Below are positions 83-20,000 of a stretch of DNA of 20,000 bases, in pieces. The stretch is taken from NCBI GenBank assembly GCA_026026165.1, contig JAPEUD010000049.1, forward strand, positions 174,309 through 194,308. The letters are read 5' to 3'. The translations under genes and the position numbers were made by a program. This stretch comes from Sarea resinae (Eukaryota). Each line of letters begins with the position of its first letter. Position 1 is the first letter of the stretch. The notes under the pieces are model-generated. The model searched no databases. It worked only from the letters and a program-made list of their open reading frames with translations, and was not told the origin of the DNA.

Positions 83-1237
83 TTAGGTGGCAGGCAAATT
101 CTTCATGTCGCCTTTTCCGTCTTGAATCCATTTAGGATCAATGAGTCTCTCCTTCTCCGCATAAAGATTCTTGTATGCAGTTCGAATAGTGCCGTCGCTA
201 ACGCCGGCTACAGCAGAAATCTCTTTCGGCGTCTTCCCGTGCTTCATCAAATAAGATGCCATGTAGATACAGGCTGCTGCTGCTGAGATGGGGGAACGGC
301 CTGCAAGAGCCCCAATCAAAGACATTTTCTCAGCTAGTCCTTCGGCGACCATCATGCAAACAGAGGGCAGACCAAGCTGACTGCAATACCGCGAGCACAG
401 GTCTTTAGCGTTTGTTGAAGTTGTTGTGGTGTAGGAGTCGTTGGGGTTGACGACTCCTATATCGATATAGATTAGATCAAATTCTACAAGTCAGATGGGG
501 CAATTTTCAAACTTACCGCCTCCTTGAACTAGCAAATCTTGTTGCTTCTTGTTTTCGATGGTAAAAAATTTCTCCAGGTGTTTGAAAATGCGTCCAATTT
601 CTTTCTTTGATACATTGGTCACCCGAAAGATGTCTTGAAAGGTGCGATTCGCATTTGTCTGCCGGCAGCCAATAAAAAGACAACCAGCAATCACAGCGTC
701 GGTAGATTTGCCTTTGAAAGCCTTTGCATCATCGACCTTCTTAAAGAGCTGCTTGGCAGCGTCCGAAGCGGTCTTAGGAATTGCTAGTTTGTCACTATAC
801 GCGCCAATTTCCTTGTATGCTGCCAGTAGGTTCTTGGTATCTTTATCGTGAGTAGACTTGTTCTGAGCGCGGTGGAGTTCGCGGCTTCTGCTTCCACCGT
901 CACCGAACGAGATGGTTGTCTCCAACTGCGAGCCATTCAGTAAGGGATTTGCCGCATCTCCAACACGTGACGGGTCATCATTCCCTTGGTCGTCATTCGA
1001 AAAAGTGCGCCATTCTGATCGAGTATCCACAATACGATCTCCCAGGACTAGGCCACAAGATCCACACACCATGTCCCCGGAGGAGAACTCTTCGACGAGG
1101 TTGGGTGGGAACTCCTTACAATCGCGACAGATCATCTGCATATTGAGATTCTCCCTCCAAGGTTCTTCGGCCATCACGGGTCTCGTCACATCAGGGCGGT
1201 CCCCCGGATTGGGCACTTGAGCTATCGCTGCTGTCAT
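83..1237 (-). CDS. SUA7: Transcription initiation factor TFIIB; 2 exons (1237-517, 456-83), intron 516-457, about 364 aa
   Basis: N-terminal Zn ribbon CRDC...CGSCG, B-reader motif EWRTFSNDD...DPSRVG, and cyclin-fold repeats ending GRSPISAAAACIY...GVSDGTIRTAYK. The 60-bp intron GTAAGT...CTAAT...TAG joins the two ORF-track pieces in frame (QGG-G-VVNPND). Confidence 0.97.
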
Positions 1238-2310
1238 CTTGACTGTAACTTTGACCTGATTCTTTCGATGAGCGTGTTCGCGTCTCCTCTTGATGGATTT
1301 CGAAGAGGTTGAAAGGTTGAGCTTTTTTGCGCAATGACGGATAAAGAGAGGAGAATACAGCTTGGCGACTGATCGACACTTATGCCAAACGGCAGCAGGA
1401 GAGAACGAAGTGAGTTGGTGGCCGCGTCCTCTGCGGTCGCCACTAGCTCATCAGAGTCAGCCAGCTAATTCGGGAGAGGCAGACTTGATCGCGAACTCGA
1501 TAAACAAGATGCTATGCGAAATGTGCTCAAGAATGCGCCATGAAAGCCAGCTCGGATCTCATTATTACCTTCTATGGTGATGTGGCGCGATGATGCGTTC
1601 CAATCAAACAACAAAGACCCACGGAGGATAGAATCAAAGTGAGATGCGGGGTTTGGTGAATTGCGACTGGAAGGGTGAGCTGCTGCTTGTCCGACCGCTT
1701 CAAGCCAGTGAAGGCGTCCGTTAGAAACCGAGAAGCATCAGGTCCGTAACAGAAGGTCGGTCAGATACGTCTTTCTTCCAAGTTTAAAGAAACAGGCGAG
1801 GCTGTAGTCTATCTTTGTCTCTTAAGAACAGACGTGCTCCGTGCGCAGCAGTACAGCAGGTGGCGAGAAGAAGTGAAGGATGAAGCATTACAAGTCGTCT
1901 AGACTCGAGTGACTACCTATGAGTGAGTCGCTTGCGTTGCGGCTCTTAGGTTCTTTGTTTGAAGGTTGCCTTAGATTTGTCAGCACATTTCCCCAACTCG
2001 GTCTCCAAGTCGGCGACTGCATCTGTGTAGGTAAGGTACCCAGCAGTACTGCGCAGTACTTTCAATTCGGGTAGAGTTCCGTGTATCTGCCAAGGAGACG
2101 AACCCTATCAGCTGTACTGGGGCGGCTCAGAGTACAGAGTACCTAGTACGAGGTACTGGAGAACCTTTAGCCGAAGAAGGCTCTCCTGCCGACAAACCAC
2201 CACCACCAAGACCATATCTTACCGACCTCGAGCCTTCCGCTTCATTTCCAACAATCTCAGTCCCGTCTTGCCGCTGTGGTTTCAATTGAGCTTCATTCGC
2301 CTATCACACC
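1238..2310. promoter_or_regulatory. Shared divergent intergenic region (5' UTRs and promoters) of TFIIB and ATP14
   Basis: The two start codons point away from each other, about 1.07 kb apart. No specific binding sites or transcription starts can be assigned. Confidence 0.5.
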
Positions 2311-2812
2311 ATGTTCTCACAATCACTCAGAGCTTCGGTATGCTACTATAGCTTTTTGCTTGCCTCGGCTGGTCGAATGCTTACTGACCGACACATCTAG
2401 CGCTCGTCCTTGGCCCGTGTCGCTCGGCAGCAAATCATCCTTCCCCGGCGGACATTCATCACTCCTACCGCCATCCGACAAGGTAAATATACTCATTTCC
2501 TTTGCGAGCATATTCAAGGACTCTGATGCTGATGGAATGCCATGCATAGCCGATCTCGTGCAGGATTTATATCTCAAAGAGCTCAAAGGCTACAAGCCGC
2601 CGCAAGTCAAGCCATCCGATGCCGAAGGTCACGTCCAGAAATTTACTGCCCCAAAGGCGCCGCAATCTCCGGAAGAAAGTGACCTGGCCAACGATTTGAA
2701 GGCTTATGAGGATCAGCAGGTGGAGGTAGAAGGTCAGGCTGCTGCTGGAGAAGCCGCTACACAAGAGGAGGATTGGTTTGTAGAGGAGGAGGAGGCTGCT
2801 GCGGCTCACTAG
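2311..2812 (+). CDS. ATP14: Mitochondrial F1Fo ATP synthase subunit h; 3 exons (2311-2337, 2401-2482, 2550-2812), about 123 aa
   Basis: Spliced product MFSQSLRAS-RSSLARVARQQIILPRRTFITPTAIRQ-ADLVQDLYLKELKGYKPPQVKPSDAEGHVQKF...EEDWF. It has an Arg-rich presequence and the DLVQDLYLKELK motif. Introns are GTATGC...CTGAC...TAG and GTAAAT...CTGAT...TAG. Confidence 0.95.
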
Positions 2813-3828
2813 GCGCACACTCATTGGGTAATCTGAAGAGAACCCCTGTATATTGCGATGCGGTCTTTATTTTAAGCAATTTTCAAAATAAGAAGGATCT
2901 CTCGGTCAGCCTTCTATCAATACCAGATCGTAGACGTGGTAGCAACAATCAGCTTCATGTCAGTCAATTGGTTGACATCAACGGCAGTGTGCTTGTCTCA
3001 ATGCCATCACGCCGAGAAGGACAAGCCGTCTGTCACGCATCCGGGAATACCTCGATGCCTGTGCCTGTTGAAGCCATAAATCCATATCTTCTAACGCACG
3101 ATGTATAGTCGATATCGTGTATGTTGTTGATGGAGTCATTTACTTAGTCTATCAGAGCTCGCCCCATAATCCGCTATAAAGAGTCCCCATCCCGCCAACG
3201 GGCTCAGCATTGTTCTCCAGGCGATAAGGCAGGTTCCTACCTCAGCCGGTAAATAAGGCACAGCAGAGCATGACTGAGGTGGTTGCCCGCTATCGTAGCG
3301 CGGAAATGGAGACATCATCTATCATGTCCAGCGATGGCTTAGTACCTACCTACCTTTGCCTTACTCTGTTGTGTCGTATCTGATAATTGAACCCATTAAT
3401 TCCAAAGTACCGTTTTGATCCATCATTGTTCTGGACAACGTCAATTGAAGTGGAGAGTACTAAACTTGAGATTCGAGTCCGTCTCTCTGGTGGACTCACC
3501 GGTGTCTCTATCCTCTTAATTCTTCTCCGCGACAAAGGTTTCTATCTGACAGCCCTTGGCAGGATTGACCCTATTGCGGGACACTCCTCCTATATGGCCC
3601 AAACCTCTGAAAATTTATATCAACGTTGCCCACACCCGCGGGTAGGTAGGTAAGGTAAATACCTACAGTGCTCTCTTTAATGATCCTATACCTACCTCCC
3701 CGTCAGTAGAAGACTACCTACCTTCTTACTCAGTGTATTTCTGAGCTTGAGAGGTTACTACTCGGAGTACGGGTAGTGCAAAGTAGGGGTACATAGTACT
3801 CCGTACATAGGTGGATGAGGATCTCCAG

Positions 3829-3963
3829 TTACCTCAGCATGCTCAGACCACATCACGTGGATCCGGATTAACATCCGGCCCGTTCGCGGGCATTCTATAC
3901 CCGCAACTGTACTCTGCGAAGATGTGGTCTGAGGCAGATTTCCTGACGTTGGCGGTGCCACGC
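3829..3963. repeat. Left terminal structure of the DNA transposon (outer TIR, branched foldback, inner IR)
   Basis: The 13-bp stem CTCAGACCACATC (3842-3854) / GATGTGGTCTGAG (3921-3933) encloses hairpins CCGGAT-taac-ATCCGG (3863-3878) and GTT(c)GCGGG...CCCGCAAC (3882-3907). Confidence 0.85.
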
Positions 3964-4673
3964 GGGAGTTTTCATTAATTTTCACAGTGTAAGGAAAAGG
4001 TCAACGTGAATAACTCACTGAATATAGCTCTATATAGCTTTAGAATCTAATCACTTATGAAAAATATATAAGAGTACAACCTATACTAGTTTGTTTGATT
4101 TCCTAGGACCTAGTTTAAGATATCTTATGCTTTAAAGTGAAATCTAAAAATAGCATATTTTGCCCTTTAAGCGCCTTCTTGACACTGACTTTTGTTAAGC
4201 TACTACAATTTTACTAGTAGTTAAGGTACGTACCTTTTCAGGCCCTTATCTTTAAACTCTGCTCCTATATACATACTAATTTAGATTTATTGTGAGGACT
4301 GCAAACAGGCAAATCAGTACCCAGCTGAGTCAAAAAGACTACTATAACTAGCCCCTAGGCTAGTTATACCTATTTACCTACTATATAGCAGCAGTTGTCA
4401 CCTAACGTAGGGAACTGCACTGTCGGCACGTTCCGCGGCACTTACTACCAGTACGTAGCTACGTACTCTGGTGGCCCCCTCAGGTACGTTGCGCAAGTAC
4501 CTCTGTACCTCAAGTACCTCTGTACCTGCGCTCCTGACATTTATCTAGAAATCTAATCACTTATAGAGAAGAAGTAGAGCTTTAATATTAGCTAAAATCA
4601 TTTATATAAAGTGTTGTAGTTAAAGAGATCTTATGCTTTAAAGTCAAAAATTATTGCTTCTAACACATATTCT

Positions 4674-4793
4674 GCGTGGCACTCACAAAGTCAGGCAAAA
4701 GTGCCTCAGACCTCTGGCTGGTCAATTGCCTAATTAGGCAATAGTGGTCCGTGCGGACCACCGACCAAGCGAGGTCTGAGCATGCTGAGGTAA
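4674..4793. repeat. Right terminal structure of the DNA transposon (inner IR, branched foldback, outer TIR)
   Basis: The 10-bp stem CTCAGACCTC (4705-4714) / GAGGTCTGAG (4771-4780), extended by GCTGGTC/GACCAAGC, encloses the palindrome ATTGCCTAATTAGGCAAT (4725-4742) and hairpin GTGGTCCG-tg-CGGACCAC (4744-4761). Confidence 0.88.
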
Positions 4794-5507
4794 GATCTCC
4801 AGTGGGATCGCATCCGTGATTCGTCATGCATCCGCAGTGCGGCCGAGGGCGCTTTCTCGCATGCCCAGACCCTGTCAACCCTGGCTTGGCTGCTCAAACG
4901 CTCATACGACAGGAGTACTTTAGTGCAGCCTGTGCTAGGAGTAATAGTACGGAGTACTCCAGCTGTGCAGCACTCTACTCCGTATGCACTGGATTAGTCG
5001 CATTTCATTACTATTTATTACTTTCTCACCTACGGCAATTGTGCGCTACTACTTCCCTTTCCGTGCTATTGAAGGACTAGGACTACGCTGCGCTCGCTCA
5101 GCCTACCTGGCTTACCTGGCATATCTCATGCCCAAATTCTCCTCTCCCGTCATTTTCACATTCATTTACAGCTGAGGACAGTCTCTGCGGCCCAAATTTA
5201 ATAAACGTTATTGCCTCGTTCTACTTGTGGTCTGGTCTTACCTAGGTGGATCTGCGCTCGCTCGGACCAAGACGTCAGGCATCACGTTCCGCCAGCTCCC
5301 TCGAAGTTTGCCTGCGAAAGACGTTCTGAAATCAGCCTATTCTGTATACTATCAGACTCGAATACCCACCAGTCGCTTCCGCCTAGGTATATATGAACAT
5401 CAGCATTCTGGCTGGACCATGAATGCTTGATACTTGCGAGAGGAGAGGGTCACGACAAAACGTCCAATCTTATCGTGGCATGGAAGGCAAGGGTGTGTCC
5501 CACTGAA

Positions 5508-8500
5508 ATGGCCTCGAGCACTTCTGTATTAGGCCATGCTGTGGATATATCGGGGTCAGCTCGTGATCGAGGCCCGCGTTCTTTGAGAAATGAACAGAAT
5601 GAACTGCCGCGCTCTGCAAGCTACACTTATCTTCCGCTTGATCCAGAGTCCAATTCGGATGATCCAACGAACTTTCCAGTCAAGCGCACCTTCTCCGAAA
5701 ACGTTGTTCCGTCACCGAATGGCGAGGAAGAAGGCGTCGTTTCGTCGAAAAAGACATCAAAAAAGAAATCCAGGCGCGGCATCTCGCCCTTCGGCAGACG
5801 GAAATCATCTCAGGCTGATGCCCAATCGAAGATAACCATATCTAAGTTCGCCCGGTCTTCTGGATGCCCCGACGGAGACACTTCCTATGAGTCCAAAACA
5901 ACGGGGAAGGGGCAAGGAGTACAGCCCGATCCAAAATCTCACTCCAGGCCAGGATCGCTCTCAAACTTTGCGCGCAAGTCCTGGATCTCAGCATCAAGAT
6001 CGCCCTCCCCAAGTAAAACGGAGGAAGATGGAAATATTGAAGACGACGATCGGTCCACCTTACGCAGCTCAATATCTTCGACGGGTCGACGAAAATCCTT
6101 TTCAATTCGTAACGACTCCCTATCTCCACCAAAGGACGCACCTACCGGAGAAGGTAGAGGTCTCGTGAGAAGAGGTACTGGGCTGATCAGGACTTCCAAA
6201 AGACCTCTAAGTGCAATCTTGAAAGGCTCTTCCACGGACGCGTACTCGGGAACCCTCCCTGCCGTGCCGTCCATTCCAAAATCCTTCTCAACGGATAGGC
6301 TTCCTTCGTTTGGCAAGTCTCATCCGTCGTCTGAGAGGCTGCCCCCCGTCCCCAGGTCTCACTCGTCAGAGCGTTTACATGGCTTCGGGCTTCTTGATAG
6401 TCCCCGCAAGAAAGATGAGCTGTGGTCTGCCTTCCGAGGACTCGACGGCGATTTTCAAAAGTAGGCTTCTTATGGACACGTCTGCTAGCATTCGAAGGAT
6501 TGAATTAACTAGCAATAGGTTCCAGTCCAAATCGAGTTCCTTGAAAGCTAACGTTGTTCGAATGTCATTGTTACCCTTCCTCAGAAATTTTGCTCAGCAC
6601 CCTTCGAACAAGATGCTCCGCCCAGAAGACTTGGACCGGAGAATCATCATTCTCAACAAGTGGTGGACAGGACTTCTTGAACTATTAAACGGCCGGACCA
6701 ACCAGTCAATATCAGGAACTGATAGACCTGCTCTTCTAGAGGCAATAGCTGGAATCATGGAGAGACCTGAATGGCGTCTTCCACCATCTTCGTTCTCTCC
6801 ATTAAAAGAAAGGTCTGTAAAGAGTTCTACGCAGTCGCGATCATCAACATCGGTTGAATCATCTGCATCGGAGTTCCTTGCAGAATCGGTCTACCACAAT
6901 GTCCGCAATACCTACGTCCAGAATCTTCTTGCTCAAATGACGTTAGTAATAGAGAAGATGTCCCTTAGGAATGCGCCGGCCAGTCTAGTCACCTTCTGTG
7001 GGAAAGCCTGTGCATACGCATTCTTCTTCTGCCCTGGCGTTGCAGATGTTCTCGTACGACTGTGGAGCACATCGTCGAGCAGCATGCAGCGCATCTTGGA
7101 AGAGTATGGTATTCCACGAATTTCGGATCTGAAAGCCGTCTCCGAGACCATCGTGCCGGGATTTCCTCCGTGTTTAAGCTCTCTAGGATTTGTGTCTCTT
7201 GCTTCGACAGTCAAAACCCTTCGAAAGGGTTCTCCGCTCCCTTTGGGCGCTTCAAACATTCCTTGGTACGGACCTTGGGTAGCTCGATGGTCTGGACGTG
7301 ACAGTGACCTATTTTTTGTTTTCGTGAAACATTTCCATATCCTTCTTGCGGAATTCCTTCCGTCGGACGCGGGAATGGAGGAGAAGATTTGCGCTCCGGG
7401 CTTCATTCTCGTCCTGGCGCAGATGGCAGAGGTCTTAGATTCGACGATTCATCGACGCAATAGTCAGATGCCCCAGGAGCCGTCAGCCGGTCCATCACCA
7501 ATAACTTTTGAGGACGTCCTTGCAGAAACTGACGTCTCGGCAACAACTCTTCCCCTTCCTACGTCGAATGCTACTAGGTCCATGGCCGAAAATCGTCTGA
7601 TAATGCTCTTACGCGAATTACTTTCGGATAGATACGCAGATCTCCAAATGGCGCGCGAGACGTTCGCTGACGCTTTCAACATTGTCCTCAAAGCTTCGGC
7701 TCGTAGGACATCTATTTTTGATCATGGCGCATGTTTCACCCTGTGTGATTTTTTGGAAGAAGCTATTGGAATATTGGAGAGATATGAGCGATTTTCACAA
7801 CCTTCACATCGCGCGATTGATTGGTCATTCTGGTTTGACGTTTTCAGACATATGACGGAAAGTCAGAATATGATGACAGATATACGGCTGTTTGCATTCC
7901 TTTATAGCATATGGGGGTTGATCGCAAGCGATGAAGAACGAAAGCGCGAGCTATGTATCGGATGGCTATTGAGCGGTGAGGTTTTTGAGAAATATTTCAA
8001 CCATTGGTGTCCGATGGTTCGAGCATATTACATGCGATTGCTCTGTTGGCGGTTGGCGAGAGTTGACGGAGAGGGCTCGGCTCTTGACACGTAGGTATGG
8101 CCTATTTCTCTAGTCGGCATCTGCTAACAGAACTTTGAAGTGATATTTTTGTCGTTCTCTCTGGCCGACTCAATTCTATCTGGTCGTACTTCCTTCATTT
8201 AAGGGCCATTTCAGAATCAGATAAGATACTGGCCCCATCAACGGCACCGTGCAATCCAGCCCCGGGGCGCCGTTTCCTTATCATCAGAAATGATAGTCAG
8301 CTAGCCCCCAGGGGAATGTTCCTCTCCTTTGAAGGTGTTGTTCCTCCGTCGGCCAAAAAACAGCCCAGTGCTTTCGAACAGCATGTTTCTGCTGATCAAG
8401 GTTCTCAGGAGGAGCTTGAAAATGGCTCAAAAGCCATAGCGTTTGGGAACGGGGCAGGGTCCGCTCCTGCTTCGAGTCAGGGAAGAAGACGATGGGGACT

Positions 8501-9032
8501 CTTACGAAACATCATGCCTTTCAATTCATCCAACGAGCGATCGAATTCGAAGCAGGCCGGGTCTGTATCTCTTCAGTCAGACATTTCCAGCCAAACATCT
8601 GGTTCAGACAACGAAGGAGAGAAATCATCTTCCAATCAAACAGTGACAAAGGCAGTCAGCAAAGGTCTTTCGTCAAGCACAAAGCCTCAGCATTATCATC
8701 AATTCCGCAACTTTTCATTTCGGTTTTCTCTGGAGTGGATTGAGTCCGCGCCTGGCGCCGGGAAAGAAAGAAGGCTTTACCCACCACGGCTTCCGATGCC
8801 TGCGCAGAACCTTTTGCAATTGACACAAAAGGAACCAGACGAGATCCAACCAGCCCAACCTACTGGTCGGTCGGTCGCTTTCAGCAGATACGCAGGAAAG
8901 GCCCTTGCAGAGTGGGCATTAGTCGTTATAGAATGTCAGAACTTCTTCGAGCGTAGAAAAAGCGAAGGGGTTCCGGAGAACAAATGGGTCGAGACTCCCT
9001 CTCTAGGGGTAGAAAGCGTCCGGAGACATTGA
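5508..9032 (+). CDS. Conserved fungal DUF1765 / UPF0592-family protein; 3 exons (5508-6460, 6519-8090, 8141-9032), about 1138 aa
   Basis: Three ORF-track segments join in frame through introns 6461-6518 (GTAGGC...TTAAC...TAG) and 8091-8140 (GTAGGT...CTAAC...AAG). Motifs recognised from memory: LNKWWTGLL, CGKACAYAFFFCPGVA, YFNHWCPMVRAYYMRLLCWR, YAGKALAEWALVVIECQNFFERR. The N-terminus is Ser-rich and probably disordered. The start codon is less certain. Confidence 0.85.
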
Positions 9033-9610
9033 TTGGTCGATTTGCGCGGACTTCACTTGCATAATTCCTCTGAGCTTCCTTGGTTGAATTGGCATGTATC
9101 ACTATTGCGGGGAACTGGGACAATTCTATGCATTGGGAAGGAGTTTTGTTCTCTGCTCGAGAAGCTGGTTTTTAAATTCTTTTTTTTTCCAACGCAGCTG
9201 CGGTGCATTTCATCCATTTTTATCAACGATAGATATAGTGTGTAGATTGGGCCATAGCATTTAGCCAGCGATGTAATTATCTGGGTCTATATGAGCTTCG
9301 ACATTGCCGAGATTCCAGGTCGATTCCCTTTTCGCCTACAATCATATAGCTTATAGGAGTCCGCACAAAATGTAATGTTTCGGTATATAAGACAAGACGC
9401 ATTTTTTTAGAGTAAGCGCCTGGACTACCAACTTTGGTGTCGTAGTATTACTTACCCATGTCCTTGGAGCCTGGCCTTTCACAACCCAAGCGGATTCGGA
9501 TTACGACCAGCGCAAACCCCATCTACCAGAAAACACTCCTCTAACGCCCTGTCCGTCTACTTGATATGCGATCGTCCTCTAAGTCCGACAAATGTGCATG
9601 ATATCAATCA

Positions 9611-10976
9611 ATGCCTGACGCCATGTCGTCGTTCGGTGATGACGAGACGGCCGAAGGAGACGAGGTATCAGAATTTGAGACAGGAGGGGAAAGTTCAAAT
9701 CCTCTACAGCAAGCCAATAGGTAAGCCGTTCAACTACAATATCATATATCGGAAGGGCTTTGTTCATCGATTTAAGCCTTTTAAAAGTATTTGATGCTGC
9801 CAAGAAAGCACAACGACCAGCTTACTTTGCGGCACCTATGGTCCGGTGAGTCAAAGCCCGCAGGTGTCGGCGCCTATATACTTATCTTAATATCCTTTCT
9901 CCTTTTAGGTACAGTAAGCTGCCTTTCAGAGCTCTAGTACGCTCTTACAATGTGGATGTTTGCTATACTCCGATGGTAAGAGCTCTCCGCATCCATCACT
10001 CGAGGATATCTTACTCTCATGCACTGCGATCCCAGATACTAGCCAAGGAATTTAATCGCAGCGAATTGGCTAGAGATAGCGGTACGTATTTCATTCCACT
10101 GAATATGTCTTGCTAACCAGTCGTCAGACTTCACCACAAATGCCGAGGACAGGCCACTTGTAGTTCAGTTTGGAGCAAACTCTGGCGAGGAGCTTTCTCG
10201 GGCGGCTGAGTTGGTTCAGCCATATTGTGATGGTATTGACTTGAATTGTGGCTGCCCCCAGAGTTGGGCCTGCCAGGAAGGCTTAGGTGCTCACCTCATG
10301 GAGGATAAGCGTAAGGTCCACGATATGATTAGGGCTGTGAAGGTCAGATGCGGACAGAGCTTCTCTGTCAGCGTCAAGATTCGAGTTCACGCTGATCTCA
10401 AGTATCCAAATTATTGGCCCATCATGCTGTTAAATAACGCTGATCGTCGTTCAGGCGTACCGTCGAATTCGTAAGGGCAGTTGAGGCGGCTGGAGTTGAT
10501 TATATCGGCTGCCACGGTCGGCGTAGAAGCCAAAAAAGCAGTGAGCCGGTCGACCTTGAAGCTATTCGACTAGTAAAGGAGGTTGCTACAGTCCCTATTG
10601 TCGCTAACGGCGATGCCTTCAGTCTGGAGGAGGCGGACTACATCGCCAGCCTGACTGGTGCGAACGGTTCGCAGATCTAATCTCTGCATTGTGGGGTGCT
10701 CGTGCTGATCAAACTTTAGGGGTCATGTCTGCTAGAGGGCTCCTGGAGAATCCTGCGCTTTTCGTTGGCCACGGACAAACACCTTGGGACACAATAGAGA
10801 GATTTCTAGGTCTTGCTGTTCGGTATCCCTTGCCTTACAGGCTCGCATTACATCACATATCTGAGATGGGAGCCAAGATGCTCTCTCGTCAAGATAAAGC
10901 AGAGATGCTTGATAATCGTGATATGCTTAGCCTTGTTGACTGGCTAGAGTCTAGGTCTAAGATCAAGAGACTATAA
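9611..10976 (+). CDS. DUS4: tRNA-dihydrouridine(20a/20b) synthase, Dus4-like; 7 exons (9611-9720, 9777-9845, 9909-9975, 10036-10081, 10128-10401, 10455-10666, 10720-10976), about 344 aa
   Basis: Spliced product contains APMVRYSKLPFR, YTPMILAKEF, DRPLVVQFGAN, GIDLNCGCPQSWA (catalytic Cys), SVKIR, HGR, VANGD and GVMSARGLLENPALF. All six introns are GT-AG and preserve frame. Exon 1 and the start codon are the least certain parts. Confidence 0.92.
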
Positions 10977-11084
10977 CTTAAGTGATGTTTTAGATTTATA
11001 GTGGTTTAAGTAATACTATAACAAGACGTTCTATTTAATTAGAAGAATTTAGAAATCATAGTAAATATTAGAGAGTAGTATTAA

Positions 11085-11393
11085 TATAAGGGCCACTACT
11101 AATAAGGGTGCTGTATGCAGCTCGGCGCAGCGCAGGGTAACCACCTGGTGTGGTTCAGCAACGTTTAGGTAAGCTGAGCGAGGTCATTAGTTATATAGAT
11201 CAATAGGGGCGCTAGCTATTAGGGCTAGCGTTCAGTGCAATTACAAAGTCAGTGCCTACTAGCAATATCTATATCTATAGTATTAGTTCTGCATCGCTAG
11301 AGTGACGCTAGCACGCTGCAAGGCACTAGCCTATTTAATTATGCTATTCCTACCTACTCTACTATAGCTAGAAGTCTAAGAGGCAGTCTAACA
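11085..11393 (+). repeat. 5' LTR of the Gypsy element
   Basis: TATAAG (inferred TG before RIP)...TCTAACA. Gap-free match to 18156-18464 with about 17 differences, all transitions. Confidence 0.95.
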
Positions 11394-11396
11394 ATT

Positions 11397-11405
11397 CTAA
11401 ACGCT
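11397..11405 (+). other. Putative self-priming primer-binding site
   Basis: CTAAACGCT starts 4 nt after the 5' LTR. It is the exact reverse complement of AGCGTTTAG in the 3' LTR (18298-18306) and differs by one RIP-type change from AGCGTTCAG in the 5' LTR (11227-11235). Confidence 0.6.
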
Positions 11406-11517
11406 CTACTAACACAGTAGTAGACTAGGTAAGATAGCGACAATAAATACATGTAATACTATAAGGGCTCCTAATACTCTGCTAGGTAAGAGAGCTAATA
11501 GAGACAATAGTAAGACA

Positions 11518-14500
11518 ATAGCAAGCTAGGCAAAAGGCAAGGTTAAGGAGCCTGTCTCTAACTAGATCACTAATTAATTGCTAGACTAAATACAGCAAGA
11601 GTGTGACGCTAAAGAGCGGCAGGCTTAATATCGTTGACTCTAGAGAGAGATAGCCTAGTTCTATACAGAACAGCAACTACAAGCACTTGCATAAGTATTG
11701 CAGCTAGAACAAGGCCTTGCAGCCACCACGCTAGCACCCTGCATCACTAACTAGACTAAAATCCAAGCTCTAGAGCTATTTACAGGCAAGACAATTAAGG
11801 AGCATAATGAATTTGTCTAATCCTATAAGATAGCGTTCTAACTAGGTGCTATTGCAGACAAAAGTGATAATGTAGCAAAGGTGCTATATACTATGCAGTA
11901 CCTAAAAGACAAACTAGCGCTAGCGTGGCACTAGGTTAAAGAATCTACTAGAAAAGACACTTATACCTAGGATAAATTTGTCTTATTCCTGCTAGACTAA
12001 GTAGAAGATCTAGTAAATCAAGGTGGTTTAATATCACAGCTATACTATAACGCTACGCAGGCGCTGCACTAGAGCATTAATAGCTTTACAGCTTTCCTAG
12101 AACAGATTGAACTAGAAGTGCTAGGAGGATAAGACATCCCTAAAGAGCAGCAATACAACTTGTTCTATACTAAGATCTAAAGTGAAATTTACTAGGAACT
12201 GCTCTAAACCCTACTAATACCACGAAAGTAGAGCGCTGCTATAGCGTCAGCAAATTAGGTAGAGGAACTCCTTTGTATAAGCAATAAAAGGAATAAGAAT
12301 AAGAACCCTAATCTATCTAAGCTAGACAATAAGCGACAGCATAGCAATAGCGTAGAGAAGGGAAAGAGTTAGAACAAATAAGGAACTAAACGAAAGTTTA
12401 ATCCTACTAAACGCAAGGGCAAAAGCCTACCTCTATAAGAACAAAAAACTTCTGCTTAGCCTAAGGATAATAAAGGCGATAAGTCTATACAGTGGCCTTA
12501 ACAGCTCTCTAACAAAGAGTATTGCTGCAGGCAAGAAGGCAACCTTTGCCTAAACTGTAGCTAAGAGAGCTACTTTGCTTCTACTTGTAAGAATAAACGC
12601 AACGACAGGCCTACGCTAGCTTTATAACTAGAGCTAAAACCCTACACTATTTGCTATCTTAGTGTAGGAGAACCTTAAGGAGCTCTAACCCTAAAATTAG
12701 AGACGTCGCTAACTATTCGCACCTCTAGTAGTACAGCAGATAGCACTACCTTAATTGACTTAGGAGCAGAAGCTTCTCTAGTTTTGCAATTATAGATTAA
12801 GGAGCATAGGATCCCTAAGGCTAAGCTTAGGCAGCTACCTAGCGCAGTAACAGTGAACAGCTTGCAAGTAGCGATCTACAGCTAACACTAATTAGAAATA
12901 CAAGTCGCTAATAGTAATAGCGTGAGAAAGATAGCGTAGTGCTAGTTCCTTGCCTGCGACTTTAATAGTCCTCTATTCTTACTTAGGTATCTATAGCTGT
13001 CCTTATACCGCCACGATATGCGTTAGTTAGAAGGTAAATTTAGCTACGTTAAGCCTGTAGATAAGCCTAGGCTTAGCAAGGAACATTAGAAGAAACGTCA
13101 GCTAAACTGCTAAGGGATTATAGTAGTGCCTAAACCTATAGAGGCAGTGAAGCTTCGCTAGGTCAGCGCTAGTAACAAGATACCTAAACAGTATAAGGAA
13201 TTTGCTTCTGTCTTTAGCAAAGAGAAAGCTAGCTAGCTTCCTAAGCATAGCCTAGCCGACTATACTATTAAGTTAGAGAGTAAAGACTCTCTCTATAGTC
13301 CTATATATCTATTATCCTAGAAAGAATTAGGTATCCTACAGACCTACCTAGACAACAGCTTAGTAAAGAGGTAGATCACTCTCTCTATAAGCCCTATTAG
13401 TGCGCTAATCTTGTTTGTGCCTAAGAAGGATAGTAGCTTACGACTTTGCGTTGACTACTAGGCGTTAAACAAGGTCACTATTAAGAATCAATACCTATTA
13501 CCCCTTATTTCTAAGCTTATAGACTGAATAAGCAGTGCTAAAGTTTTTTCAAAACTAGACCTAAGAGATGCTTACTACTGCATAAGGATCTGCAAAGGCG
13601 ACAAGTATAAGACAGCGTTCTGCACTTGTTATAGCTAGTTTAAATATAAGGTTATGCTCTTTAGATTAGCTAATGCACCTGCTACATTTTAGAGCTATAT
13701 TAATTATGCGTTACAAGGCCTAGTTAATGTCTACTGCGTTGTCTATCTAGACGACATTCTTATATACTCTAATTCACCTAATAAGCATAAGAAGCATATA
13801 CACTAGGTCCTTAAACAGCTATTAACCTATAGCCTATATGCAAAGCCCTTAAAATGTGTCTTTAGAGTGTAGGAAGTTGATTTCTTAGGATTTGTTATTA
13901 GGACTAATAGTATCGCGATAGAGAAGAGCTAGGTAGACACTATAAAAAAGTGGCTAGCCCTTAAGACCTATTATAACCTCTAAGTCTTCCTAGGATTCGC
14001 GAATTTCTACTAATAGTTTATAGAGAAATACTCTATTAAAGCGCTGCTATTAACTAGCCTGCTTGCTAGGAGCAAGAATAGAAAGAAAAGCAGTCTATTC
14101 TACTTCTCTAAGGAAGCTAAGGAAGCATTTAAAGCCCTAAAAGAAGCTTTTACAACAGCGCCTATACTGCGCTACTACAATCTAAAGAGGCAGATATAAG
14201 TAGAAACAAACGCTTCTAGATTTGCTGTTGCAGCAATTTTATCCTAGCTAGTCAAGGATAAATAGGGCGTGACAACAGCGTTAAGGTAGCACCTAGTTGC
14301 ATACTAGTCTAGAAAGCTTACTAATACTAAATCGAGATATAAAGTGCATGACTTAGAGTTGCTAGCTATTGTAATAGCTTTTAAGCAATAGCGCTATTAC
14401 TTAGAAGAGGCTAATTACCCTATTAAGGTCTTAACTAACTATGCAAATCTACGCTACTTTATAACAACAAAGGAGTTAACCTGTCGCTAGGCTAGATAGG

Positions 14501-16833
14501 CTGAACAGCTAGCAGCGTATGATTTTAAACTTGTATATAGAGCAGAGAAAGCTAATCTAGCTAATAGGCTGTCGCAGCGCCCTAATTACAAGGTAAAGAC
14601 ATAGGGTCTAGAAGTGATACTTCTTACTCTATAGCAGAAGCTGCAGAACCTGCGTATGTTAAAGAGAGACAGCACTGTGCTAGTGATCTAAAACCTTCTT
14701 GCTAGAACAGATAATAAGTATCTAGGCGAAATAGGCGCTAATACACTAAAGGATAATGTGCATCTATAAGGGATTAAAAACCTCTCTAGGTTAAGGGATA
14801 ACACCTTGCCTACTGTTAATAAGCGACAGTAGCGCGCTAGGATAACACCTAGTCTAAGCGTAAAGGATAATGTGTATCTATAAAGGATTAAAACCCTTTC
14901 TAAGTTATAGGATAAAACCTAGCCTAATGTCAAAGAGCGATAGAGAGGCACTAGAGTGACACCTAGGCCTAGCCTAAATAACAATGCTAATAAGCTAGCA
15001 TTAGGAGATAAGTTTAAACACCTCTATATAAGACAAGCAATGCATAAGGCAGCTGCTAATAAAAGAGCGTACAACCTGCTAACAGGCTAGCTGCTTAACG
15101 TTATCCTTAGGACTTAGTAGGAAGATTATTTCGCTAAGGAAAAGATTAAAAGCATTTCTACTAAGGAGGTTACAGGCTAAGAAAAGTGGAAAATAGACTC
15201 TATAGGCCTGCTGCGCCTAGAAGGCAAAGCATATGTGCCGCGTGATGCAGCTATTAGGTTAGAAATCATAAGGATAAACTATAATAACCTGTTTAGTAGC
15301 TACTTTAGCGCTAAGAGAACGATAGAGGTGATCTAGTGTAAATACTAGTAGACTAATTTAGCTAAGGATGTCAAAGAATATATTAATAAGTGCGATATAT
15401 GTTAAAGGGTCTAGGTGCCTAGGCATCGCCTATACAGCGAGCTACAGTCGTTACCTATACCCTACTAGCTGTTTAAAGAAATCACTATAGATTTTGTGAC
15501 AGGCCTGCTGCTAAGCAACACAAGAGATTGCAAGGCCTATAACATAATAATAGTAGTAGTTGACTGCTATACAAAGATAGCGAAATATATTCTATGCTGA
15601 ACAAATCTGAATGCCGCTATACTTGCAGACATATTTGTTAACGTTATAACAACAGCGTATAGCAATCTAAAGCGCATTGTATTAGATAGGGGCAGTGTAT
15701 TTGCAAGCAAGTTTTAGTCAGCGATATGCTATTGAATGCGAATTAAGAACTAGCTTAGCACTGCCTTCTACCTGCAGACAGATAGCTAGACTAAGAGGCA
15801 AAACTAGACGTTAGAACACTACTTACAGTGCTATATAAGCAGCTGCTAGGACGACTAGGCCCTGCTGTTGCCTATAGCTAAGTATGCATACAATAATAGC
15901 ATACATTTGTCTATAGGAATGTCACTCTTCTATGCCCTATATAGCTATAACCTAGATCTGCAACTTAATATCACAGACAATGCTATAGAGAGAGAGGTGC
16001 TAGCAGCGAACAAGCGCCTTAACGTCCTCTAAGAGGTAAGACAAAGACTAGAAGAGGATCTTGCTAAGGCATAGCAGTACTAAGCTAAGTAGTACAATAG
16101 GAAACATAAGCTAATGCAATACAAAAGAGGCGATAGAGTTATGCTGTCAGCGCGCAACCTTAGCACTATACACCTGAGTAAGAAGTTAGAGCACTGCTAT
16201 ATAGGCCTATTTGTAGTACTTAACTCTATAGGCAAGCAAGCCTACTAGTTACAGCTCTCTAAGGCTTATAGATCTATCTACCTTGTATTTTATGTGTCGC
16301 TACTTAAGCGCTACTACAGCAATAGCAATACCTTTCACTAGCACTTTAAGCTAGTTAATAGCTAGGTTAAGTAGATTGTTAAGAAAATCCTAGGCTGTAG
16401 AGTACTTAAGAGAGAACAACAATATCTAGTTAAGTAGAAAAGAGCTCTAGTAGATAATACTAGCTAGGAGCTAGCAGAGCACCTAGCAAACGCTATAGAC
16501 CTAGTATAGGATTATAAACAGCACTTACTCTCTAACTAGTATAGAGGCCTAGCAAACAAGGAATAGGATGCTAGTGTGCTATTAACTAAGCCTTATAGTC
16601 GACTAAGGAAGCGACTGCTTAGTGATAACGCTGTAGAGGCGATAGCTAAGAGGCTAAGAGGCTACCTAAGGAAGAATCTACTACTCTATAAGGAACCCCT
16701 AGCTAGCCTAGAGATGCTAGTAACAAAACGCCTACAAGGAAGGCTATAGAAGTATAGCCTAAAGCTGCAAGTGATTGTAGGAAGGAGACCTTACAGCTGT
16801 CCTAGAAAGGACACGCTGTTGCAGCACTAGTAA
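11518..16833 (+). pseudogene. RIP-destroyed single-frame gag-pol polyprotein
   Basis: Every motif checked is in frame +1, with many TAA/TAG stops. Residues in brackets are inferred pre-RIP. Zn knuckle CLNC...(H)FASTC 12547-12588; protease LID(S)GA 12751; RT FVPKKD(GG)LRLCVDY(R)ALN about 13410-13470 and VYLDDIL 13741; RNase H VET(D)AS 14200; integrase (S)DRG about 15680 and STAF(HP)QTD(GQ)T(E)RQN about 15760; G(P)F about 16200; chromodomain 16369-16500. Both ends are approximate. Confidence 0.93.
14747..14974 (+). repeat. Two tandem 114-bp (38-codon) units in the RNase H-integrase linker
   Basis: TAAAGGATAATGTG(C/T)ATCTATAA(G/A)GGATTAAAA(A/C)CCT... starts at both 14747 and 14861. Confidence 0.85.
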
Positions 16834-17105
16834 GGAGCTGCTATTAGAACTCTTTCTACCCCTTTTACCTACAAAGGTTTTTAGGTGGTTTTAGCAAGCT
16901 AATATAGGGGTAGGCCTGCGATGCGATTGCATGCTAACAGCGTACAGTCTTTATAGAAGGCTATTAGGCTATAGGGCTACAATGCTACAGTTATAAGAGG
17001 AGATAAAGTCATAGAAAAGAAAAGTAAAATTAACCTCTAGCGCTGTCCTAGCGCGAACCTAAAGCTATCTAGTATACAAAGGAAACAGAAAGAACTACTA
17101 TCCTA

Positions 17106-17803
17106 TTACTAACTAGTCTGCCCTGCCTAGCCCTAACTAGCCTAATTGCTAGACCTCTCTAGAGGCGTAGTTGTATTGTTGTTATCCTTATTATCACTCT
17201 TACCTACATGTGTAACAGACAGCAAATCGAACTAGATAACTAGGTTAGCGCTGTTATATCGCTAGCGTTCTACATACAACTTACAGCAAACTAGAGGATA
17301 TTATTAAGGCTTTTAACGCTATTAGTGAGTTGTTCTGTCGCTACAGCTGTACAAAGCGCGTTGTTAGACAAGTGCTTGTTAGCAGCGTTTATATAGACTT
17401 TAACCTAGCGAGTGAATCGCCTCTATAGATTGCAGAGCGCAGCAGCTAACAGCTTCTTAGCAGGGTTATTATTAGCGTAGCTAACCACTACGTTAGCCGC
17501 CTTAGTAAGCTAGTTTAGGCGCTTGCAGAAGACTATAGGCACCTTTAGCACGCTAGGTCAGAGCCTAGCTAGCACTATATAGGAGTCACTTACCTAACTA
17601 CACTTCTTATACAACTAAGCACATTATATGCACTTTGCAGCTAATAAGGCCTTTGTACAAACAATATCTAGTGTAGACCTAATAACCTTAGCGCAGCAGA
17701 GGCAGACGTCCTAATTCAGTTCTATAGGCTTTTAGAGGGCGGTAGCAGGCTAGTTTACATGTAGCAGAGGCGCAGCAAAGCGTCTAGGATTTATAATAGG
17801 CAT
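17106..17803 (-). pseudogene. RIP-mutated antisense 3-exon accessory gene of the Gypsy element (exons 17803-17594, 17542-17285, 17231-about 17106; about 197 aa) with a Zn2Cys6-like Cys cluster
   Basis: ATG at 17803 and the pattern C-x2-C-x11-C-x8-C-x2-C-x6-C. Two phase-0 introns: GTAAGT...CTGAC...AAG (17593-17543) and GTAAGT...CTAAC...TAG (17284-17232). All internal stops are TAG/TAA that RIP can explain. The true stop is uncertain. Confidence 0.78.
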
Positions 17804-18140
17804 ATAGAACGTACCTAAAACATAGTGCAAAAAGTTTAATTATACACGCGCGCACTAGATCACCTACGTTTTATACCTACACACCTATAGCTAAGCAACC
17901 TCTAAGCGATAGAGAGAATGCCTAATGCAGACAGTTTAAAGCATTCACTCTATCTATTTACTGCTGCTACTCTAGCGCAGCGTTTAGCAAACTAAGCAAA
18001 TAGGACAAAGAACTCTCTTTATTATCTACATAAATTCACTGTTTGCAGCGAATAGCAACGCTACTAAGGCGCTAGCAAGACAAAGACTTAACACTATAAT
18101 GTTATACATCGCGAACAAAGGACCTAGAGGACTAGGTCCT

Positions 18141-18155
18141 AGGAGAGGAGGTAAT
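18141..18155 (+). other. Polypurine tract
   Basis: AGGAGAGGAGGTAAT immediately 5' of the 3' LTR. Confidence 0.8.
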
Positions 18156-18464
18156 TATAAGGGCTACTACTAATAAGGGTGCTGTATGCAGCTTAGCGCA
18201 GCGCAGGGTAACTACCTAGTGTGGTTTAGCAACGTTTAGGTAAGCTAAGCAAGGTTATTAGTTATATAGATTAATAGGGGCGCTAGCTATTAGGGCTAGC
18301 GTTTAGTGCAATTACAAAGTTAGTGCCTACTAGCAATATCTATATCTATAGTATTAGTTCTGCATTGCTAGAGTGACACTAGCACGCTGCAAGGCACTAG
18401 CCTATTTAATCATGCTATTCCTACCTACTCTACTATAGCTAGAAGTCTAGGAGGCGGTCTAACA
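18156..18464 (+). repeat. 3' LTR of the Gypsy element
   Basis: Direct repeat of 11085-11393 at offset 7071; ends TCTAACA followed by TTAA. Confidence 0.95.
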
Positions 18465-18850
18465 TTAAGTAGGTAGTCTCTTAATTATTACTAGGTACTA
18501 GGTACTAGTACTAGACAAGTGATATACTATAAATATACAGTTAAACCTACTTATAATAGTAGAGGTTTAAGAATCTAGAAAAGGTTTAACACTATTATAA
18601 GACCTAAAAAGGTTTAATATAGTCTTAACACTTAGAGTAGGTTTTAGAGACCTATAGAAGGTCTTAAAACTCTTAATACTATTATAATATAGTCTTAAAC
18701 TAGTTATAAAAACCTCTTTAAAGGCACTTAAGTACCTTAGTACTATATTAAGTAATTTTAAAACTGTGTTTAAACTGTGTTAAAACTATATTATTACTAC
18801 TATAAGTGTTAACACCTATAGAAATTATAAGACAGTACTATAACAGTGTT
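18465..18850. repeat. Unclassified, heavily RIP-degenerate AT-rich repeat relic
   Basis: Very AT- and TpA-rich, with short reiterated motifs (AAAAGGTTTAA, AATATAGTCTTAA, AAACTGTGTT). No recognisable protein motif. Confidence 0.5.
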
Positions 18851-19027
18851 TGTTATAAGGTAGTATAAATATATAAGTAAAGAAAGGTGCTAAAGAAGTA
18901 TAGTATAGAATAATTATATATTATAAACTTAGAGATTCTAGCTATAGAGGTAGAAGGCAGTTAATATATAGACTTAACTAACTTAATAGAAAATTCTAGC
19001 AATAACTAATTGTATAAGTGATTTGTA
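18851..19027 (-). mobile_element. 3' part of a Copia-type LTR in minus orientation (solo or 3' LTR, apparently interrupted)
   Basis: Reverse complement aligns with 19351-19528 over about 177 bp with one indel. It ends in ...ATAACA at 18851 and is not followed by a PBS. Confidence 0.75.
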
Positions 19028-19081
19028 TTAGAATTATAACCTTAATTCTAGTCACTCTTAAGTATCTAGACTATTATAGAA

Positions 19082-20000
19082 TGTTATATAATTGTATAGA
19101 TATATCTAGAAGCTTCTATAGACCTATAGAAGCTAATAGAATATAGTAGAACCTTATAGAATCTTATAAAACTTTCTAGAAGATTCTATAGCTATGCTGA
19201 CTAAGCATCACTATATGCTGACTAAGTATCTAAAACCTTTTAGATTACTCTAGAATGTTCTAGAACTACCTAGTAGTCTATAGAATCTCTTAGATATCTA
19301 TAGAATCTCTATAATATAAGAGTTATATAGTAACTATCCTCTAACTTTCTTACAAATCACTTATGTAATTAGTTATCACTAGAAGTTTCTAGTAAGTTAG
19401 TTAAGTCTATATATTAACTGCCTTACACCTCTATAGCTAGAATCTCTAAGTTTATAATATACAATTATTCTATACTATACTTCTTTAGGCACCTTCCTCT
19501 ACTTATATCTTTATACTACCTTTAAACAGGTTATAAGCCTTGCTAGCCTGCTAAAGAAGCCTATAATTTCGTGGTTTTTTCACCTATAGCCACTGAAATT
19601 CCTTTAAAGAAGAGTTAAACTTCCTCTTTTTCACCTAAAAAGACTAGGTCCTATAGTCTTTATAGTCCCTAGGCAGTTATATAGCCTCTTAGAGGTTATA
19701 TAACTTAACTTGCAGATAAGAACCACTTAGAGTAGACTGCTTAAACTAAGCCTATACTTATAGACATTGTGTATACACACACTTAATAAGGATTTTCCTA
19801 ATCCTTTGTGCTGCCTTATAGGCATAATCCCCTTTGAAGGGAAACACCTATAGGAGAGCAAGTTAAGTGCTTAATGTATGCTGCCTTTACCTAGTCCTAT
19901 AGTACCTATAGCTTGTGTCTATAGAACTATAGTATAGCAGCCTGTGTTCTGCACACCTTAGCAGCTTGTGTTCTGCAAAGCAGCCTTTGTGCCGCAATTT
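19082..20000 (+). mobile_element. 5' end of a RIP-mutated Ty1/Copia-type retrotransposon: LTR about 19082-19528, PBS 19529-19540, internal leader running off the window
   Basis: TGTTA...AAACA boundaries followed directly by GGTTATAAGCCT, the RIP form of GGTTATGAGCC seen after Copia 5' LTRs. The LTR has reiterated TAGAA/TTCTA motifs and two ATGCTGACTAAG copies. No coding motif is recognised in the window, and the LTR start is less certain than its end. Confidence 0.7.

Follow-up and report, generated by a model that had tools for sequence, protein, structure and literature searches.

The question raised by this locus is whether the minus strand of a decayed retrotransposon, in the interval between its pol gene and its 3′ long terminal repeat (LTR), encodes a protein, and what such a protein would do. 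The locus lies in a 20,000-nucleotide stretch of contig JAPEUD010000049.1 of Sarea resinae (hereafter the window, with positions counted from its first letter), which carries a complete Ty3/gypsy element heavily altered by repeat-induced point mutation (RIP). An earlier note, made from the letters of the window and their open reading frames (ORFs), had read there a hidden minus-strand gene with two introns, starting at an ATG at 17803, situated between pol and the polypurine tract (PPT) and encoding an atypical zinc-cluster protein. We find that this gene is best explained as a RIP-dead copy of a chromovirus accessory gene, whose product would most likely act as a small Gal4-style nuclear regulator, and we put the probability of this reading at about 60%.

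With the window frame, read with X at stops, as the query, HMMER was run exhaustively over 1.84 billion representative proteins and returned two proteins at E ≤ 0.001. The better of them, P0003, is an intact hypothetical protein of 194 amino acids from a 139,551-bp contig of a S. resinae metagenome-assembled genome (MAG), and its match (E 2.8e-49) bears out the hidden gene, whose sequence is as it had been described. The BLASTP alignment of the window with P0003 contains 104 identities in 167 positions and a single gap, whose extent coincides precisely with the 17 codons of intron 1. In the reverse direction, tblastn places P0003 on the window at 17794–17285 (E 1e-55) and 17231–17115 (E 4e-7) and finds no second copy of the antisense gene in the 20 kb.

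A spliced coding sequence (CDS) of the window copy was built with the intron coordinates of the earlier note and a start at 17794. It comprises 195 codons including the stop and is collinear with P0003 codon for codon, with the same residue or stop at 129 of the 195; all 66 differing codons, 14 stops included, can be derived from codons for the P0003 residues by C>T or G>A changes only. The coding sequence 5′ of the introns (201 + 258 nt from 17794) places both of them in phase 0, and the lengths of 51 and 53 bp, the GTAAGT donors and the CTRAC branch points that had been proposed are all read in the window, the last as CTGAC and CTAAC. Eleven stops interrupt the frame over exon 1, intron 1 and exon 2, exon 1 itself ending ...KKCS and a stop at 17594. 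Because the spliced CDS carries 14 in-frame stops, the window copy is dead, a pseudogene killed by RIP. It should be noted that the other two frames of the window are also rich in stops, so the pattern of open frame alone is weak evidence and the comparison with the homologue is decisive.

The position of the start is less clear. The proposed ATG at 17803 is present, and the Met of P0003 aligns with the window ATA at 17794–17792; judging from this alignment, translation of intact copies probably begins at 17794, and ATG 17803 may itself be a RIP product. The residues that had been restored to their supposed state before RIP, namely the (R), (G), (P) and (Q) in and around the cysteine module and the tail (E)SD(DE)D(DDD), agree with P0003, the tail of which reads ESDDEDDDD. 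All six cysteines of P0003 are also Cys in the window, and four extra window cysteines are Arg in P0003. The explanation of the six cysteines as RIP artefacts was considered and is ruled out, as all six are found in intact relatives and only the four extra ones are Arg>Cys changes.

To what family does this protein belong? A profile of P0003 and P0004 was run against 5.8 billion proteins (5099 candidates, length window 105–340 aa) and gave 16 proteins at E ≤ 0.1, of which 14 also pass E ≤ 1e-14, with E values within the family from 1e-14 to 1e-99. A third homologue search, with alignment A4, in which the best 8000 candidates were scored, gave four proteins, and the family may be larger than 16. 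The named sources are S. resinae (Sareomycetes), Stipitochalara longipes, Hyaloscypha hepaticicola (two proteins) and a Mollisiaceae species, so that three of the four named host taxa are Helotiales; for the other proteins, the source is JGI, ENA or Logan metagenome data. Scans of prokaryote genome contigs (71 pattern matches) and viral contigs (177 pattern matches) yielded no relatives.

The intact proteins have about 150–240 aa and align in three parts. A basic N-terminus with ...R-P-C-C-L-R-C-S-K... leads into the six cysteines; the second part begins V-P-x-x-C/F-x-x-R-L-N-R-L and continues as a helical stretch ending D-V-L-R-Y-Q; and correctly spliced models close with an acidic tail, e.g., SRDNPEDDDDD. 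The cysteine spacing read in the window, C-x2-C-x11-C-x8-C-x2-C-x6-C, recurs in 12 of the 13 proteins matching the search pattern, P0018 having x9 in the third gap. Counted by column, Cys occupies 14/15, 14/15, 14/14, 14/14, 13/14 and 13/14 of the cells; the remaining four cells are Tyr and look RIP-like (TGY>TAY), standing in sequences that themselves appear RIP-affected.

The six invariant cysteines, the conservation of the protein far above chance and a collinearity that preserves the frame only when both introns are removed bear on a first alternative, according to which there is no protein gene, the antisense transcript matters or nothing does, and the gene models are predictor artefacts on repeat DNA. 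All members are indeed unreviewed 'hypothetical protein' models without a precomputed Pfam domain, and the runs examined give no read-level RNA support; against this, the same frame is called by separate pipelines (NCBI MAG, JGI fungal genomes, metagenome ORF callers). We consider this alternative very improbable and a real conserved gene of the element very likely.

RNA and DNA runs were compared with 16000–18155 at 80% likeness. The wood-decay metatranscriptome X2, which shares 0.07 of the words of 8200–18150, gave zero contigs on this interval, which is no proof of absence; runs X3 and X4 gave one 37-nt piece and none, respectively. From the DNA run X1, 1039 contig pieces matched; 239 of the 252 kinds of difference counted in them are transitions, and this dominance of transitions fits many differently RIP-mutated copies. 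The summed contig depth of X1 is about 3,300–7,700 over 17152–17871 versus 12,900–25,200 on either side, at the pol end and towards the PPT; the lower depth over the antisense gene could reflect greater divergence or copies that lack the gene, contig depth being a poor measure.

Intact DNA of a second locus was obtained from a metagenome scan, in which 133 pattern matches led to one locus, L001, of 3080 bp that is not RIP-mutated. Its antisense gene lies at 907–1556 (+), with the ATG at 907 and the stop at 1554–1556, and is convergent with an open integrase–chromodomain ORF of 476 aa ending at 1648 (−), in which Pfam finds Integrase_H2C2, rve, SH3_Tf2-1 and Chromo (4.7e-17). In the window, the pol domains extend to 16515 (+), the antisense gene occupies 17803–17106 (−) and the 3′ LTR begins near 18154. 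The antisense arrangement between pol and the 3′ LTR is therefore found in both loci with readable DNA, and an open spliced frame is present in the intact copies (P0003, L001), both being points on which the earlier note had asked to be checked.

The splice signals, a further such point, are conserved at the same two positions. Intron 1 of L001 (1099–1143, 45 nt, GTAAGT donor, in frame and stop-free) occupies the site of window intron 1, and intron 2 (1408–1451, 44 nt, GTAAGC...CTAAC...AG) that of window intron 2, so that both intron codon positions are common to the two loci. Beyond intron 2, the frame of L001 continues as NNLPPISRSNPENDDDDAEDG..., an acidic tail that P0009 and P0010, both spliced models, have as well.

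Other members of the family carry traces of the same introns. Proteins P0004–P0008 contain an insertion of 14–16 residues, which begins with V-S or V-R and sits precisely at the site of intron 1, P0013 and P0016 are without it, and several proteins run on ...YQVS... at the intron-2 site; read-through of GTAAGT gives exactly such residues, which accounts for insertions at these places. The length of the Helotiales-type intron 1 is divisible by three and its frame is stop-free, so that unspliced RNA would give a full-length protein with a 14–16-residue insert; the Sarea-type intron 1 of the window holds an in-frame TGA. When intron 2 is retained, the acidic tail is lost in the window, in L001 and in several ORFs from the databases; P0008 is different, because its retained stretch reads through in frame and leaves the tail in place. 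In general terms, introns on the antisense strand can persist because the genomic RNA of the element is the other strand, and they would in this way outlast retrotransposition.

How old is the association of the gene with the element? The integrase–chromodomain ORF of L001 is 38% identical to the window over 446 aa (15187–16515, tblastn), a value lowered by RIP, and the antisense proteins are 27–36% identical to P0003 in the alignment. The similarity of these values indicates that the gene diverged along with the element, and in this comparison it appears as an old component of the element lineage, not a recent passenger. The opposite explanation is that part of a host gene for a Zn2Cys6 regulator was captured in reverse, with its introns, by one element family and plays no role. 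The introns would fit descent from a cellular gene, the family numbers few proteins (16 in a database of 5.8 billion), and transduction of cellular sequence is a discussed origin of plant antisense ORFs in the available part of PMC11963269. Neutral cargo would, however, have decayed over such a divergence, and here the open frame, the cysteine spacing, both intron positions and the acidic tail have been kept; nor was a longer host paralogue or a protein with a Fungal_trans domain found among the HMMER and profile matches, the latter within the length window given above. We regard capture without function as improbable.

The element itself has the order of a chromovirus, i.e., reverse transcriptase, RNase H and integrase, with a C-terminus aligning through the chromodomain of L001; Pfam Chromo itself was not detected in the RIP-mutated pol of the window when the X-read frame was scanned. 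The two LTRs are 95% identical (direct repeat 11085–11384 versus 18156–18455). RIP indices across 11–20 kb are high (TA/AT 1.55–2.64, GC 32–41%), in contrast to the host genes at 1–3 kb and 5–11 kb (TA/AT 0.48–0.85, GC 45–51%), and the ORF scan left no ORF of at least 80 aa inside the element. An undercharacterised chromovirus lineage, as the earlier note had suggested, fits these data (Sarea and three Helotiales taxa, with pol at 38%), with two loci supplying the DNA.

What kind of protein does the gene encode? The AlphaFold2 (AF2) model of P0003, calculated from a 15-sequence alignment, has a mean predicted local distance difference test score (pLDDT) of 78.9, with 86–97 over residues 21–120. 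Short helices start at each CxxC (residues 32–36 and 56–60), and three long helices (residues 70–88, 96–122 and 127–154) are followed by a disordered tail; the 86-codon exon beginning VP, at 17542–17285 in the window, had been expected to be helical, and the model concurs. Fold searches with the whole-protein model gave no specific match. The cysteine domain modelled alone (exon 1 of L001, 64 aa) has a pLDDT of 76.7, and when compared by Foldseek with 350,542 PDB chains, it returned six rows at E ≤ 10, all six of which are Zn2Cys6 domains: chains A and B of PPR1, GAL4, Pho7 twice and LAC9 (E 1.6–9.5, root-mean-square deviation 2.1–3.1 Å, 36–40 columns). A VIA search of the same domain gave four rows, all Zn2Cys6 domains with weak scores.

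The ESM Atlas gave a similar picture. For residues 12–64 of P0009, Zn_clus or 'Zn(2)-C6 fungal-type' clusters make up 8 of the 10 structure rows (template modelling score, TM, by query 0.57–0.62), and for the whole of P0003, 7 of 10 rows are clusters of Zn_clus type (TM 0.24–0.33); the Atlas feature search returned unnamed Ascomycota clusters only, with scores of 0.87–0.90 or below, which serve as leads only. It should be noted that both structure predictors may reproduce a learned cysteine pattern and that every fold score is below conventional significance.

The canonical Zn(II)2Cys6 spacing is C-x2-C-x6-C-x5-12-C-x2-C-x6-8-C. The family departs from it in the first loop, which has 11 residues instead of 6, and its other gaps are within range. 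On the models, the cysteine module is most likely a divergent cluster of Zn2Cys6 type whose first loop exceeds the canonical one by five residues, and we hold a zinc-binding fold of this kind to be probable. The extended loop is probably the reason why the Pfam model misses the module.

Set beside the known Zn(II)2Cys6 domains (Gal4, Ppr1, Leu3, Pho7, Lac9; PF00172), the family shares six cysteines, of which the C-x8-C-x2-C-x6-C half lies within the canonical ranges, a short helix modelled at each CxxC, and the order of a basic module followed by helices and an acidic tail. Unlike Zn(II)2Cys6 factors, its proteins are short, contain neither Fungal_trans nor another middle-homology domain, and are encoded by a retrotransposon, not by the host.

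The distribution of charge is that of a Gal4-type protein, with a basic cysteine module (9–12 K+R versus 2–3 D+E) and an acidic tail. The acidic tail predicted in the window stands in the relatives as well, where D+E versus K+R amount to 9 versus 1, 11 versus 2, 8 versus 1 and 11 versus 1, with 11 versus 1 in exon 3 of L001. On this basis, a mechanism can be outlined in which the protein would enter the nucleus, the zinc module would bind DNA (both zinc and DNA binding are properties that we infer), the helices would perhaps mediate pairing of the protein, and the acidic tail would recruit the transcription machinery and so cause activation. The target could be the LTR of the element itself, an internal promoter or host genes. 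A complex prediction with two copies of P0003 residues 25–158 and four Zn, in which the alignment was unused, gave a score of 0.03 and a mark of 0.32 and speaks neither for nor against dimerisation.

Several observations weigh against such a regulator. In terms of sequence family, the assignment to Zn2Cys6 is not supported, although the predicted fold favours it: none of the 16 members matches PF00172 (Zn_clus) at E ≤ 10, with the HMMER filters dropping most matches above about E 0.1, and none has a convincing match to any other Pfam family at that threshold. Searches of PDB sequences gave nothing significant with the family profile (best synaptobrevin, E 0.5; PPR1, E 9.5) and, with exon 1 alone, only ribosomal protein L33 at E 4.9. 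The first loop of Gal4-type domains carries the residues that contact DNA, and it is this loop that is lengthened in the family. Pairs of CGG/CCG half-sites in the LTR side of L001 (1–906) number 0–2 per type versus 2.1–4.3 expected from mononucleotide shuffles, and 446–500 of 500 shuffles reached the observed count; in this weak test, there is no sign of classic Gal4-type sites. In addition, splicing is read from gene models and splice signals, with DNA available for two loci.

The missing PF00172 membership, the altered loop and the lack of CGG/CCG enrichment make a protein- or RNA-binding role a serious rival. In this alternative, the element encodes a zinc protein that does not bind DNA and serves as an anti-silencing adaptor, helps to export or package RNA, or acts as a decoy titrating a host Zn2Cys6 partner. 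The conserved gene and its invariant cysteine pattern fit this role too, and in the AF2 model, the cysteine module and the first two long helices are uniformly confident (pLDDT 91–97, residues 31–120), with no free head on a linker. The antisense retroviral protein HBZ, to which we return below, acts mainly via bZIP partners, that is, by protein–protein contacts, according to the available part of PMC10186651. Yet the only solved folds that resemble the cysteine module are DNA-binding Zn2Cys6 domains, and a basic module with an acidic tail is the classic layout of an activator. We judge the non-DNA role unlikely on the whole, and for the product as a transcription regulator, the odds are slightly short of even.

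The regulator reading can be extended into a fuller model, in which chromoviruses of Leotiomycetes and Sareomycetes would encode a miniature Gal4-type factor that binds the LTR or internal region and balances sense against antisense transcription. Retention of introns would switch between an activator and a tail-less competitor, and the protein would be a counterpart of HBZ and represent a hitherto unrecognised long-loop subclass of Zn2Cys6. All parts taken together, this extended model is doubtful.

From where might the gene be transcribed? In L001, a TATATATA box at about 735–742 abuts a pyrimidine run at 745–780, which is the PPT on the sense strand, and its place beside the PPT suggests that the antisense promoter of L001 is located at the edge of the PPT and LTR. 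Two repeat arrays lie upstream of this intact gene: 22-nt tandem repeats in 2.8 copies at 508–567 and an 11/22-nt repeat array at 824–907 that reaches the ATG. In the window, the TATAAAA listed in Table 1 is weak evidence of a promoter element because RIP yields TA-rich sequence.

Antisense genes at the 3′ end of LTR elements have precedents. One is brtn of Botrytis and Sclerotinia, which, like three of the four named hosts here, belong to the Helotiales; its description is reportedly due to Zhao et al. (2011, Virology 417:248). This common order of hosts makes homology to the window family quite possible, and we place it near even odds. In the available parts of the sources, brtn is an antisense gene between pol and the 3′ LTR of Boty elements with a chromodomain gag-pol (PMC8365987, PMC7264820, PMC4227169), and thus an antisense extra gene in the same place of a fungal chromodomain element. 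The same portions of these accounts mention no cysteines, zinc cluster or introns for brtn, the comparison being one of descriptions only; brtn is shown in Fig. S1 of PMC8365987. No Botrytis or Sclerotinia protein was among the matches of the HMMER search of 1.84 billion proteins or of the profile search.

A second precedent, and in function the nearest parallel, is HBZ of human T-cell leukaemia virus type 1 (HTLV-1), which, as far as the available part of PMC10186651 goes, is a spliced minus-strand gene near the 3′ LTR, has an activation domain and a dimerising or DNA-binding domain, and modulates expression from the LTR. The window gene resembles HBZ and the APH proteins of HTLV-2/3/4 in being encoded by the minus strand of an element that undergoes reverse transcription, close to its 3′ LTR, in being spliced and in its factor-like architecture (PMC10186651, same part). 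Unlike it, HBZ belongs to a human retrovirus, is a bZIP protein without a zinc cluster or any sequence relationship to the family, and has its promoter in the 3′ LTR, whereas the ATG of the window lies about 350 bp inside the internal region, counted from the LTR. The likeness would be one of function only.

Plants provide a third case: Grande, RIRE2 and Retand have antisense ORFs (aORFs) between pol and the 3′ LTR, and that of Retand encodes TRP28 proteins for which DNA binding is predicted (available parts of PMC7264820 and PMC11963269). According to the same sources, they agree with the fungal gene in position and orientation, in conservation across the copies of a lineage and in a suspected role in regulation through DNA binding, and they differ in belonging to plants and to non-chromovirus lineages and in their domain, TRP28 (PF04195); the word 'intron' does not occur in the available part of PMC11963269. 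The fungal family has the features of the aORF-3R class, being on the opposite strand between the end of pol and the 3′ LTR in both readable loci and conserved in 16 relatives from four named taxa at the identities given above for the antisense proteins and the RIP-lowered pol, with genomic context from two loci. The class of antisense extra ORFs is therefore already known, and the family represents accessory genes of one chromovirus lineage within it. The zinc-cluster-like product, the two conserved introns and the family itself are apparently unpublished within the literature searched, which did not extend to Zhao et al. 2011 or to the figures in the supplement of PMC8365987, and no paper joining Zn2Cys6, LTR retrotransposon and antisense was found in it.

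The coordinates of the gene, the element and the neighbouring genes are collected in Table 1.

Table 1. Features of the 20,000-nucleotide window, with the evidence on which each is based.
Feature	Position	Strand	Basis
Antisense gene, exon 1, basic N-terminus and six-Cys module	17594–17803	−	sequence; homologue alignment
Antisense gene, intron 1, 51 nt, phase 0, GTAAGT...CTGAC...AG (AAG acceptor), in-frame TGA	17543–17593	−	sequence; P0003 lacks its 17 codons
Antisense gene, exon 2, 86 codons, begins VP, helical middle	17285–17542	−	sequence; collinearity with P0003
Antisense gene, intron 2, 53 nt, phase 0, GTAAGT...CTAAC...TAG	17232–17284	−	P0003 collinear only once it is removed
Antisense gene, exon 3, tail FDL...KSDNKDNNN, stop TAA 17108–17106	17106–17231	−	sequence; tblastn
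TATAAAA, candidate promoter element	17869–17875	−	66–72 nt upstream of ATG 17803
Ty3/gypsy element, complete LTR retrotransposon	11083–18464	+	LTR pair and pol domains
5′ LTR, ~311 bp, ends approximate	11083–11393	+	direct repeat 11085–11384 / 18156–18455, extended by alignment
gag-pol region, one frame, heavily RIP-mutated	11386–16515	+	Pfam on X-read frame from 11386
RVT_1	~13417–13899	+	Pfam 2e-25
RNase H (RT_RNaseH_2)	~14107–14520	+	Pfam 2.9e-22
Integrase_H2C2	~15250–15411	+	Pfam 1.2e-6
SH3_Tf2-1	~16129–16314	+	Pfam 1.6e-14
Chromodomain-like pol end	to 16515	+	tblastn of L001 integrase–chromodomain ORF
PPT, purine-rich tract, RIP-altered	18120–18152	+	read from sequence, just 5′ of 3′ LTR
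3′ LTR, ends approximate	18154–18464	+	direct repeat with 5′ LTR
TFIIB ORF	491–1237	−	neighbouring host gene
ATP synthase subunit h ORF	2276–2812	+	neighbouring host gene
DUF1765 protein ORF	6310–8094	+	neighbouring host gene
Dihydrouridine synthase fragment	10211–10474	+	neighbouring host gene

Within pol, between the RNase H and integrase regions, there is a 114-nt tandem duplication (14747–14974, two copies, 77% identical). The element is flanked by ...ATTAA at about 11078–11082 and TTAAG at about 18465–18469, which from their sequence are a possible 4–5-bp target-site duplication blurred by RIP.

The neighbours TFIIB, ATP synthase subunit h, the DUF1765 protein and dihydrouridine synthase (Dus) are ordinary housekeeping genes. 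Only a few hundred bases separate the ends of the Dus fragments from the 5′ LTR, so insertion of the element may have taken place within the Dus gene or right beside it. On the 3′ side of the element, 18465–20000 has a GC content of 26–33% and dinucleotide indices of RIP type and is probably another degraded repeat; between the host genes, 4001–5000 (TA/AT 1.62, GC 0.43) is possibly an older RIP-affected relic.

The family is unannotated and has no Pfam family of its own, and the gene model, the motif and the fold hypothesis together make it directly testable. The case also illustrates that gene callers and annotators of transposable elements miss spliced antisense genes inside RIP-degraded repeats. 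If the two are related, brtn of Botrytis, long known yet uncharacterised, would gain a structural hypothesis and its first fold assignment, and the window family would be a new member of the brtn family. The common view is that LTR retrotransposons depend on transcription factors of the host; if the proposed role is true, a sequence-specific regulator encoded by the element would be a retrovirus-like accessory control for fungal chromoviruses, comparable to HBZ, Tat and Tax, and could explain how some families escape silencing or time it.

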